Part shown: piece after piece, positions 12,928 through 54,478 of the stretch
How the letters are laid out: the number at the start of each line of letters is the position of its first letter
Position numbering within the stretch: the stretch's first letter is position 1
Assembly: GCA_002633005.1 (NCBI GenBank)
Contig: NMRA01000165.1
Location: 1-61,402 of the forward strand
Direction of reading: 5' to 3'
Length of the DNA stretch: 61,402 bases
DNA from: Phoronis australis
Taxonomy: Eukaryota > Animalia > Phoronida
Made by a program: the position numbers and the translations under genes
The notes under the pieces: generated by a model
What the model was told of the DNA's origin: nothing
Database searches by the model: none
What the model saw: the letters and a program-made list of their open reading frames with translations, nothing else

Positions 12928-13127
12928 ATGGCTAACAACCATGACAAAACGAAGCGTGTGGAGACCATTCGGAAGAGCTTGAAGTGCCCTGAAATAAAGT
13001 TGGAAGACATATCCATGGCGGAAGAAATTATCGGAGCTGGTGGTTTCGCTGCAGTGCACAAAGGCAAATACGAAGGAAAACTGGACGTGGCTGTAAAAGT
13101 TTTTGAACATCGTAAATTTACAGAACG
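12928..13127 (+). CDS. Kinase coding exon 1 (subdomains I-II)
   Basis: Kozak accATGg with in-frame upstream [12 protein letters not shown] and VAVK; donor CG|GTgggt, phase 2. Confidence 0.9.
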
Positions 13128-52557: not shown

Positions 52558-54478
52558 TGGTTGATAATTCATCAATATTCCTACTTCACATTCTTCTCAA
52601 AATGAAAGTACACACCCATTTTATATATATATATATATATATATTATGAGTGCAGAAAATGGGTGTGTACTTTCATTTTGAGAAGAATGTGAAGTAGGAA
52701 TATTGATGAATTATCAACCACGATACATTCACCAAATCCATGTCAAGATCACATCATTTCACAGCACGAATGAAAAGTAATCCTCACCCACAGCATCGGA
52801 AACACGCGCATGGCTGGATCTGAACTAAGTGTAGCAGGTTACCCTATCCCTGCCAGTCTTCCCAAGTTTAAAATCGCCCGTAAGTTTTCCCAACCCTGAA
52901 ATGAAATACCTCCGTGCCCCGATGTTGTCCCTGTTTTCAGTTTGAAAATGAATCGTTTTAGATTCAAGAATCGCGATTGTGAATGACTGGTACTGAGCTC
53001 ATTTGCAAACAACGCAATCAATAATTTAGGGACTGATAATTTTTGCACACCCTTTAAATCGCTCACTAAATGGACACAAGTACAATAGTTTATGAATGTC
53101 AGTTCCGCATCATTGGGAGACGCTCAGAGTAGTAAACTGTCGGACTTGTGAATATGGTTTCGCAATAGTGAACCTTAATTAGGAGTAGTGATATGTAATC
53201 GTGGAAATCCCTTCCGTCATGTTTGTCGTTCGTATGAAGTCTGCGAGGTTGTGCGCTATTGACAAAAATTCACAAGAGAAGAACTTTCTTTGTTTACCAA
53301 AGATTTTTATTAGGTCCAATCCTACTTTTACCGAATGATGCGAATATGCTCGTCGGAAGGAATTTTTAGTGCACGAAAACACACTACACATGCAGTGAAA
53401 TGTCTGCTTTGTGAGCAACGATAAGGGACTTCCTATTGAAGTTACGTGTACTGTATTTAAAAGAATTAACACGCACACATGGCATGCATGTCTATCCACC
53501 AGGTAACAACCTATCTTCTGCTATTTGTTTGTTGATCGGTTTTAAGCTATTTACACACTAAATTTTGGGACCTCTCGCTGTTATATAGGCATATACATTT
53601 AGTTCTAGGCTCGTGTTACCCTATGGTACAGTCAACACGAGCATTCAACGTGGTAGTCGGTGGCTTATGACTGTCGGTATCATAAAGCGTTCGCTAATCG
53701 TCGTCTGCACGAACCTGCCATATGGTACGCAAATTCATGGCCATTTGGCGAAGTTGGCTGGGTATGGCCCAGGTGATTAGGCCTACGTAAAGCGCTTGGA
53801 TTCAGGACCAATTTTGAAATTATTAGAAATTAACTTGATTATTATTGTATTTAGTAGTACCAGAAAAAAACAAAATAGTTTATTTGATATCGTTACTTAT
53901 CTATATGAAAAGCCTAACGGATATGCTGGGGCTGGGCCTTTTAAGCGGGGAGGGGGTTCGATCGAGCCCCCCCCCTCTCCTGGCTACAGGCCTGCTAATG
54001 CCCCAAAAGCTGTTGGCAGAACCAGCTTCAGTTAAGTCAAATGGTCAAAATGATATTTGTATTCTGAAATGAGCCCTACAATAGGAACAGCTGTTCCAAA
54101 GATGTCTACATTTTTGTGTCCCACCAGTTTTACATTGCTTTGCAGGTTGCTATTGTGGAGGCGTTTAAATGTGACCTAGGCCTACTAAGCGTGAAAGCAG
54201 ATGTCAAGAATGGAGTTCATGTTGTACACGTCCAGGGCAGAGCTGGTGACGTCACTAACGTGCGCGAAAAAATTAAAGAAGTTTTCAATTTGGCAAATCT
54301 GGGTGTTGCTCGTCATGATCATGATGATAGTAGTGATGATTTTGATCTAGACTACTACAGTTCCAATGCTTATTATGACTTAGAAATGGACGATTACCCT
54401 AAAAAAAGACACGTTTTATATAACCCGTACAAGTATTATTATACGGACAGTGAAGACAGCAATTACGAAGAGACGTAG
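12928..54478 (+). CDS. 12-exon gene model: RIPK/TKL-like kinase fused to PARP14-like KH repeats, macrodomain, KH-like unit and acidic Tyr-rich tail (~1038 aa)
   Basis: Exons 12928-13127, 26858-27062, 27451-27570, 27712-27872, 28050-28099, 28711-28863, 29520-29608, 32450-32510, 36237-37421, 39682-40149, 52178-52269, 54146-54478; all introns GT-AG with matching phases (2,0,0,2,1,1,0,1,1,1,0); total 3117 nt, open frame. Confidence 0.7.
15087..16826 (-). mobile_element. 5'-truncated non-LTR retrotransposon (CR1/L2 group) with poly(A) tail and 12-bp TSD
   Basis: ORF2 linker [19 protein letters not shown]...YWNIINK; T10 at 15087-15096; AATAAA on minus strand at 15111-15116; TSD ACTAGAACCATG at 15075-15086 and 16827-16838; middle is in the N gap. 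Confidence 0.85.
15440..16327. other. Assembly gap
   Basis: Run of N. Confidence 1.
17902..19224 (+). mobile_element. Non-autonomous Helentron/HINE-like element with internal ~440-bp repeats
   Basis: Subterminal IR ACTCTGCGCGTGC (17905) / GCACGCGCAGAGT (19175); 3' hairpin ATTATTGTCAC-gcc-GTGACAATAAT (19190-19214); TTC/TTA microsatellite; repeats caccgga..aaaggtcat at ~18167, 18608, 19041. Confidence 0.65.
19817..20460. mobile_element. Possible solo LTR
   Basis: Bounded by (c)GTCAC...GTGACA, internal TCTAGA-rich short repeats; no matching TSD seen. Confidence 0.35.
20540..23022 (+). mobile_element. Degenerate L2/CR1-group LINE (RT region to 3' end)
   Basis: Frameshifted ORF2: [51 protein letters not shown] degraded to YVHD, KYLG, QNRAAR; 3' stem-loop and (AAT/AATA)n tail. 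Confidence 0.9.
23830..26530 (-). mobile_element. Degenerate RTE-X-like LINE with ORF1 remnant, endonuclease, RT and C-terminal Cys/His knuckle
   Basis: ORF1-like [83 protein letters not shown] on minus strand near 23835. Confidence 0.85.
26858..27062 (+). CDS. Kinase exon 2 (alphaC, hinge)
   Basis: tttcAG acceptor, phase 2; [30 protein letters not shown]|GTatgt. Confidence 0.92.
27451..27570 (+). CDS. Kinase exon 3 (catalytic loop)
   Basis: [23 protein letters not shown]; tttgtttcAG acceptor, AAG|GT donor; not in the ORF track. Confidence 0.95.
27712..27872 (+). CDS. Kinase exon 4 (DFG to subdomain IX)
   Basis: [21 protein letters not shown]|GTaatt. Confidence 0.95.
28050..28099 (+). CDS. 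Kinase exon 5
   Basis: (S)[16 protein letters not shown](G); phase 2 to 1. Confidence 0.92.
28711..28863 (+). CDS. Kinase exon 6 (subdomains X-XI)
   Basis: [20 protein letters not shown] with the conserved Arg; phase 1 to 1. Confidence 0.9.
29520..29608 (+). CDS. Kinase exon 7 (end of C-lobe)
   Basis: cattttcAG acceptor, (K)[16 protein letters not shown], strong CAG|GTaagc donor; phase 1 to 0; no stop codon. Confidence 0.8.
30090..31750. mobile_element. Non-autonomous Kolobok-like DNA transposon, copy 1
   Basis: TTAA|AGTCCTTCT...AGAAGGACT|TTAA termini; homologous to 49410-51902. Confidence 0.7.
32450..32510 (+). CDS. Linker exon 8
   Basis: Strong acceptor tcttttttcccAG and donor C|GTgagt; [20 protein letters not shown]; phase 0 to 1, bridging the kinase and KH exons. 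Confidence 0.75.
33265..34240. repeat. TIR-bounded element carrying a ~290-bp tandem repeat (about 2.5 units)
   Basis: Units start at ~33401, 33688, 33984; tagcatagataatcgaggtaccaacatct is inverted as agatgttgatacctcgttcatctatgcta at ~34186-34214. Confidence 0.65.
34560..35300 (+). mobile_element. Penelope-like retroelement RT fragment
   Basis: [38 protein letters not shown]; frameshifts and stops. Confidence 0.85.
36237..37421 (+). CDS. Exon 9: PARP14/PARP9-like KH-type repeats and N-terminal half of macrodomain
   Basis: 393-aa ORF with KH-like units ([28 protein letters not shown]), then [20 protein letters not shown]; acceptor at 36236 or 36242 (both phase 1); G|GTaagt. Confidence 0.88.
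39682..40149 (+). CDS. Exon 10: C-terminal half of macrodomain
   Basis: [52 protein letters not shown]; phase 1 to 1; G|GTaggt. Confidence 0.92.
40503..43430. mobile_element. Possible non-autonomous TIR element(s)
   Basis: tgacgccatattggagagtgttac (~40570) inverted as gtaacacactccaatatggcgtca (~43356); internal IR ggtctaaatttaatgtgaa (41397) / ttcacattaaatttagacc (42864). Confidence 0.4.
43746..48442 (+). mobile_element. Sola3-like DNA transposon with degenerate transposase
   Basis: TTAA flanks (43742-45, 48443-46); TIR GAATGATTCCATATAAAAACC / GGTTTTTATATGGAATTGCTC; motifs [41 protein letters not shown]2H2 finger; ORF 45437-46321. Confidence 0.7.
49410..51902. mobile_element. Non-autonomous Kolobok-like DNA transposon, copy 2
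   Basis: ACTCCTGATCTCA...TGAGACCAGGACT|TTAA; collinear with 30090-31750 plus ~880 extra bp (about 50092-50967). Confidence 0.7.
52178..52269 (+). CDS. Putative linker exon 11
   Basis: gactttgtcAG acceptor, CAG|GTatta donor; phase 1 to 0 as needed to join exon 10 to exon 12; polar low-complexity peptide; weak polypyrimidine tract. Confidence 0.45.
52481..52725. repeat. (TA)n microsatellites and a perfect 70-bp inverted repeat
   Basis: 52553-52622 is the exact reverse complement of 52656-52725. Confidence 0.9.
54146..54478 (+). CDS. Terminal exon 12: KH-like unit and acidic Tyr-rich tail
   Basis: ttgctttgcAG acceptor, phase 0 (alternative start 54128); [21 protein letters not shown] resembles the post-macro KH segment of PARP14; ends NYEET-stop. 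Confidence 0.65.
   Translation, partial: VAIVEAFKCDLGLLSVKADVKNGVHVVHVQGRAGDVTNVREKIKEVFNLANLGVARHDHDDSSDDFDLDYYSSNAYYDLEMDDYPKKRHVLYNPYKYYYTDSEDSNYEET

Follow-up and report, generated by a model that had tools for sequence, protein, structure and literature searches.

A predicted Phoronis australis gene that would splice a RIPK-like kinase to the KH-macrodomain core of PARP14

Introduction

RIPK1-5 (RIPK1, RIPK2, RIPK3, RIPK4 and ANKK1) are built from an N-terminal kinase, an acidic linker and a C-terminal interaction module (PMC12119088), and the RIPK homologues of amphioxus have many unique architectures, with LRR, DEATH, SH3, ZU5 and Zalpha domains and with no macrodomain among those named in the excerpt (PMC9573974). 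The available part of a deuterostome RIPK survey shows no macrodomain architecture (PMC11507063). Non-RD kinases have been tied to innate immunity (PMC8463890), PARP14-like genes duplicate often (PMC4245714, PMC13224862), the KH8 domain of PARP14 binds DTX3L (PMC13224862, PMC11251020), and the conversion of PARP14-type ADP-ribosylation into an immune signal is poorly understood (PMC13224862). Here we describe a locus of the phoronid Phoronis australis (GCA_002633005.1, contig NMRA01000165.1, positions 1 to 61,402 of the forward strand; hereafter the window, a stretch of 61,402 nucleotides) which, with a probability that we put at about 0.65, is one young lineage-specific innate-immunity gene in which a RIPK1-4-like kinase is spliced to a PARP14 core. 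The death-fold tail has likely been swapped for the KH3-KH6/KH7a-macrodomain 1-KH7b/KH8 core of a PARP14-like gene.

The Phoronis model has the three-part layout of RIPK1-5 and differs from them in lacking a death domain, CARD, ankyrin repeats and the RHIM tetrad, and in a tail that is predicted to be PARP14-derived. With no classical RIPK tail and a PARP14 core, it is therefore to be seen as a RIPK-like kinase with a PARP14-derived tail. It shares with PARP14 and the macroPARPs (PARP9, PARP15) a colinear run of KH3-6, KH7a, macrodomain 1 (MD1), KH7b and KH8, together with the same boundary inside MD1. Unlike them, it has no RRM1-3, KH1-2, MD2-3, WWE or ART, appears to have lost the hydrolase residues of MD1, and has its PARP14-like part set between a kinase and an acidic Tyr-rich tail. 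The lack of an ART excludes it from the macroPARPs.

Results

One open reading frame across twelve exons

The window is intron-rich animal DNA with a GC content of about 39% and retroelement fragments. Rebuilding the exons from sequence alone gave a spliced model of 12 exons over 41.5 kb (12928-54478, plus strand, as are all exons below), in which 11 of 11 introns of the kinase-KH-macro model are GT-AG and the frame, 3162 nt long (3168 nt if an alternative acceptor at 36237 is used) and coding for 1053 residues, has the terminal stop as its only one. Simulated random substitutions close a frame of 3162 nt after a median of 14 changes, or 0.4% of its length, and in 95% of cases by 1.8%. There is no N run from exon 2 to exon 12; an 888-base N gap in intron 1 (15440-16327) could hide an exon.

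A putative RIPK1-4-like kinase in exons 1-7

Exons 1-7 are predicted, from PDB similarity searched exon by exon, to encode a RIPK1-4-like non-RD kinase. The coding part of exon 1 (12928-13127), with an in-frame stop four codons 5' of its start codon, holds the Gly-rich loop and the VAVK lysine (PK_Tyr_Ser-Thr, E 0.02), and exon 2 (26858-27062) the alphaC Glu and the hinge (PF07714, E 2e-8). Exon 3 (27451-27570) carries the catalytic loop HSDLKLAN, whose HSD marks a non-RD kinase, exon 4 (27712-27872) carries DFG, the activation segment and APE, and each of these two exons matches a piece of the Pfam kinase domain. AlphaF is encoded by exon 5 (28050-28099), subdomains X-XI with their conserved Arg by exon 6 (28711-28863), which has no Pfam match by itself, and the end of the kinase by exon 7 (29520-29608), which closes on a near-maximal phase-0 donor. 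The kinase motifs (Gly loop, Lys, alphaC Glu, HxD, DFG and APE) are thus all intact, and the kinase exons of the preliminary description, the donor at 29608 included, were confirmed.

Against the PDB, RIPK2 was the best of 62 sequences matched by exon 3 (E 2e-6), with plant CTR1 nearly tied, three of three matches of exon 4 were to RIPK3, weakly (E 0.03), and exon 2 matched a JAK-type tyrosine kinase, ZAK and then RIPK1. The seven exons end in phases 2,0,0,2,1,1,0 and exon 5 is 50 nt long, which is presumably also the case in human RIPK2, although a literature search gave no confirmation. The model holds no RHIM tetrad, and neither Pfam nor the RHIM check found a C-terminal death domain, CARD, RHIM or ankyrin repeats, the plus-strand open pieces of the gap between exons 7 and 9 included.

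A strong predicted bridge between the two halves

Whether the halves form one gene hinges on the two introns numbered 7 and 8. Only two other sites in the window, counting both strands, are as strong as the donor of exon 7, and by eye these two are the arms of a single palindrome at 1-343. Exon 8 (32450-32510), a predicted 61-nt exon that codes for an acidic linker and bridges both halves, takes phase 0 to phase 1, as previously proposed. Its splice score of 17.4 compares with 11.3 for the runner-up of its phase class in the 6.6-kb gap, just one candidate of that class on both strands of the window outscores it, and about 0.06-0.11 candidates of this grade are expected in the gap by chance; no other strong phase 0-to-1 bridge is present there. 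The KH/macro exon that follows (exon 9, 36243-37421) is 1.18 kb long and does have the phase-1 acceptors earlier ascribed to it, at 36243 (score 7.1) and at 36237 (score 3.7).

No death-fold or other credible Pfam match was seen in the 40 of 40 plus-strand open pieces of at least 40 codons in the gap between exons 7 and 9, and no remnant of the PARP14 N terminus (RRM, KH1-2) in six frames. Homology to PARP14 starts about 28-30 residues into exon 9. Among 68 short relatives chosen from the 150 listed of 216 found with this exon, 51 reach at least 100 residues further upstream than that point, whereas at the other end 52 stop 15-60 residues past the Asn motif of the macrodomain, and none later, at what corresponds to the exon 9/10 boundary. 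We infer that these short relatives are single-exon gene calls, so that intron 9 would be ancestral to PARP14 and the 5' end of exon 9 would not. Because the homology starts inside exon 9 and the relatives extend upstream of it, the break of the chimera likely fell inside the ancestral large exon of PARP14, judging from these alignments, and the exon shuffling that had been suggested is disfavoured in the sense of a clean join at an existing intron.

A PARP14-like core with a single macrodomain

Residues 375-871 form a single uninterrupted 388-bit match to a profile of 39 PARP14-like sequences. The match runs from profile position 141, which the second unit's match to KH_PARP14_4 identifies as KH3 onward, and makes exons 9-12 colinear with PARP14 in the order KH3-KH6, KH7a, MD1, KH7b and KH8, with the macrodomain inserted in KH7. 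Behind about 28 non-PARP14 residues, exon 9 encodes KH3-KH6, KH7a and the first part of the macrodomain. In Pfam it matches KH_PARP14_4 with an E value of 7e-4, which falls short of the curated threshold, and four of four matches in a word-index search carry the PARP14 domain set. An AlphaFold2 model of exon 9 built with the 68 relatives (mean pLDDT 86) shows four beta-alpha-alpha-beta-beta-alpha units, an incomplete fifth one and the opening strands of the macrodomain. For this model Foldseek ranks a KH-domain structure first, with TM-scores that are low over the extended chain.

Exon 10 (39682-40149; Macro, E 9e-17) encodes the remainder of the macrodomain, which scores 183 bits against the profile of MD1, 116 against MD2 and 107 against MD3, and which a quick tree of 94 rows places with the MD1 sequences, in a group of 28 rows whose SH support is 96. 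It is the only macrodomain in the window. Exon 12 (54146-54478), with an E value of 0.0018 against a PARP14-like post-macro profile among 2733 six-frame pieces, encodes the rest of KH8 and, where PARP14 has WWE-ART, a 53-residue acidic Tyr-rich tail and the stop. A WWE-ART profile found nothing in the 2733 six-frame pieces (best E 2.8), 6.9 kb of the window lying past the stop, and in the window as a whole RRM, KH1-2, MD2-3, WWE and ART were all absent. The C-terminal 53 residues (54317-54478, plus strand) hold 12 Asp, 4 Glu and 11 Tyr, had no homologue that we could see, and are possibly a phosphorylation or docking segment.

The macrodomain is predicted from its sequence to be hydrolase-dead. 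Active MD1-type hydrolases have Asn/Ser and Gly flanking loop 1, and a small hydrophobic and an aromatic residue in loop 2 (PMC10221186). Here the Asn is kept and the Gly, found in 26 of 31 MD1 sequences, is replaced by Gln, with the reservation that loop 1 holds an MD2-like extra residue and the Gly register could be off by one; loop 2 reads Phe-Cys, where the second residue is Phe or Tyr in 20 of 31. With these hydrolase residues lost, the macrodomain would at best be a reader. The Asp that serves the adenine side of macrodomains and the first Gly of loop 1 are retained, but a loop 2 Gly kept in 28 of 31 MD1 sequences is replaced by Ser, so that binding of ADP-ribose is uncertain and may be lost too.

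Canonical RNA-binding KH domains have a GxxG loop between helices 1 and 2. This loop is absent from all five KH units of exon 9 (KH3-KH6 and KH7a), so that the case for RNA sensing is weak, and the two GxxG strings past the macrodomain lie, in our own reading of the alignment, at strand-helix positions.

Placement of exon 11

The stretch from exon 10 to exon 12 holds 758 open candidates for exon 11 that take phase 1 to phase 0; we put each of them before the start of exon 12 and scored them against a position-specific profile of 43 PARP14-like post-macrodomain segments. The candidate at 48584-48726 (143 nt) ranked 1 of 759, with 20.3 bits against 16.9 for exon 12 alone. Its peptide aligns along KH7b-KH8 of the PARP14-like profile, supplying a KH7b-like segment and the start of KH8; 3 of 1000 shuffled versions scored as well, and its splice score is moderate (11.4). 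The frame of 3117 nt given in the preliminary description would need an exon 11 of 92 nt, as the other 11 exons, with the boundaries used there, sum to 3025 nt. Exon 11 being unstated there, we reconstructed it from that length as 52178-52269, the best-scoring 92-nt candidate, which ranked 425 of 759 on the profile and was rejected, so that the corrected frame replaces the earlier one. A further candidate, at 49349-49446, overlaps a repeat and was also rejected. With an iterated profile, which drifted to generic KH domains, the candidates did not separate (rank 4 of 759). BLAST comparisons of exon 11 and exon 12 with a single PARP14 gave no information, and a predicted complex of KH6-KH7a with the exon 11 peptide had a score of 0.20, short of the 0.34 mark. 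Within the KH array, the exon for KH7b is placed least securely.

Relatives of the two halves

A HMMER search with exon 9 over 1.84 billion representatives found 216 relatives, and among the 150 listed none exceeds 38% identity and none 31% over most of its length. A kinase match was found in 0 of 154 fetched relatives, and Pfam, run on 31 of these 154, had no kinase in the families displayed. The atlas searches returned clusters of KH_PARP14 and of plain Macro only, and a metagenome scan gave 78 pattern matches, none of which was confirmed. Word-index searches with exon 2 (seven candidates, no match) and exon 10 (one match, macro only, in 1579 candidates) were too weak to exclude relatives; given this weakness on the kinase side, close relatives may exist in unannotated genomes. 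The earlier statement that no animal protein of this architecture is known to have been described agrees with what we found: the literature searched, mostly open-access articles without their supplementary tables, holds no description of a RIPK-like kinase with a PARP14 core.

One gene, two genes or a young duplicate

Several observations weigh against a single gene, RNA coverage among them. We sampled about 18-19% of each of three raw runs and used one contig set bearing the same species label, mapping reads to 26400-46399 (at 90% likeness) and 39600-56600 (at 97%). Among the joints listed for these two regions, none links any two exons. Sense depth is 0-0.04 in the bins of exons 3, 4, 5 and 7 in three of three raw runs, the exon 9 bin has a sense depth of 0 in all three (antisense 2.7, 1.5 and 0), and the bins of exons 10 and 12 have a depth of 0 in four of four runs. 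The exon 6 bin, with a depth of 2-5 on both strands and with mismatches listed in the preceding intron, is likely a repeat, and the reads in both mapped regions are dominated by intronic repeats. The locus is nearly silent in the RNA samples examined, so that the join, for which junction reads had been proposed as the check, is neither confirmed nor contradicted. No orthologue was found that would show conservation of the join, and our splice scores come from rough generic matrices, not trained on Phoronis.

One alternative is a pair of adjacent genes, a short RIPK-like gene for a kinase alone, whose end would lie at exon 7 or beyond it, and a truncated PARP14-like KH-macro gene, or else an assembly misjoin in the repeat-rich gap. 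The kinase exons, earlier described as running on without a stop, do so only if the exon 7 donor is used; on read-through a stop is met after 29 codons, and an A(A/T)TAAA hexamer follows at 30440. In-frame ATGs at 32504 (exon 8) and 36248 (exon 9) could start a separate KH-macro protein, there are kinase-only RIPK homologues in amphioxus (PMC9573974), the gap holds a 1.7-kb repeat with a second copy in intron 11, and the joints listed contain no exon junction. However, the exon 7 donor is near-maximal, and a first exon has no need of a strong acceptor such as that of exon 8, an exon that fixes the phase exactly. The hexamer sits within the repeat, the repeat copies are only 88-92% alike, and no N gap separates exons 7 and 9, which tells against a misjoin. 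The CpG observed/expected ratio (o/e) is up just before exon 1 (1.37) and not before exon 9 (0.72), but a further rise, to 1.51, lies 0.8-1.2 kb 5' of exon 8, making this argument weak. Taken together, we regard two genes or a misjoin as unlikely.

The chimera could also be a recent unexpressed duplicate or a very young pseudogene, its frame open for want of time. This would fit the near absence of sense RNA on the exons mapped, the low antisense signal over exon 9 in two of the three raw runs, the missing orthologue, and the active-site changes of the macrodomain. Yet all 11 introns are still GT-AG, the kinase motifs are all intact, and immune genes can be silent in unchallenged tissue. The introns moreover hold several decayed, frameshifted retroelements, one of them in the bridging gap, and because neutral change of about 0.4% would already close the frame, their decay speaks against so young an origin, which we consider quite improbable.

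Repeats and neighbouring features

The segments 30083-31754 (intron 7) and 49403-51906 (intron 11) are copies of one highly transcribed repeat, 88-92% alike. Low one-strand coverage at about 34400-37700 and 46400-50900 in two raw runs is likely antisense to the kinase gene; it spans exon 9 and may come from an opposite-strand transcript. One GT-AG joint (44981-45461) falls in a transposon-like stretch and is possibly from other copies; its first mates are on the minus strand, making this direction likely sense.

Broken retroelement frames lie at 20481-22396 (+), 23913-26579 (-), 16340-16904 (-), 34547-34963 (+) and 56795-57423 (+); RVT_1 was confirmed for two of these pieces and the remainder were judged by eye. 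Transposon-like frames at 9274-10631 (+), 44880-46400 (+) and 59287-59706 (-) have no convincing Pfam match. The first 343 positions of the window (1-343) are a long imperfect MITE-like palindrome, each arm of which holds a perfect splice donor. The stretch 4513-8492 contains local duplications, one of them an identical copy of 498 bases, and single Ns; these upstream duplications and the N gap in intron 1 are signs of imperfect assembly, outside the kinase-KH join. Some 10 kb 5' of the kinase gene, a 336-codon frame at 1435-2442 (+) has a Fic/DOC domain (E 1.5e-10), whose Fic motif appears to be complete.

Discussion

Our results bear out the domain reading with which this locus was first described, with a kinase, KH folds (four in our model), a PARP14-type macrodomain and no WWE or ART, and one gene is the best, if unproven, reading. 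Its supposed PARP14/PARP9-type origin can be narrowed to a PARP14-like donor, as PARP9 is confined to jawed vertebrates (PMC10221186). What had been called an ADP-ribose/RNA-sensing module keeps at best a reader role for ADP-ribose: its RNA part is weak for want of GxxG loops and its macrodomain is predicted to be hydrolase-dead.

The single gene that we favour could have arisen when a partial PARP14 duplicate was fused, within its large exon and with the frame kept, to the end of the kinase's linker exons, MD2-3 and WWE-ART being lost from the PARP14-like copy. RIPK1 and RIPK2 are activated by death-fold clustering. In the Phoronis protein, PARP14-type enzymes would mono-ADP-ribosylate proteins during infection, the hydrolase-dead macrodomain would read these mono-ADP-ribose marks, and the KH array would dock on DTX3L/PARP14-like partners or assemblies, so that clustering at ADP-ribosylated proteins might activate the kinase and with it NF-kB or cell-death signalling. 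Given one gene, we put such ADP-ribose gating at slightly worse than even odds. The wider proposal, in which one polypeptide wires ADP-ribosylation to RIPK signalling, its macrodomain and KH scaffold gating the kinase and mono-ADP-ribose serving as an activating danger signal, strikes us as rather doubtful. Viral macrodomains erase the mono-ADP-ribose mark, and a kinase-macro protein could therefore also guard the PARP14 pathway or serve as its decoy.

Should the locus turn out to be two genes or a dead duplicate, it would be an ordinary product of immune-gene turnover. If the single gene is real, it would indicate a direct link between the PARP14 and RIP-kinase pathways and would offer a one-protein system for testing ADP-ribose switching of an inflammatory kinase. 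The known tails of RIPKs would gain a macrodomain/KH module, and the chimera would be one that formed inside an exon.

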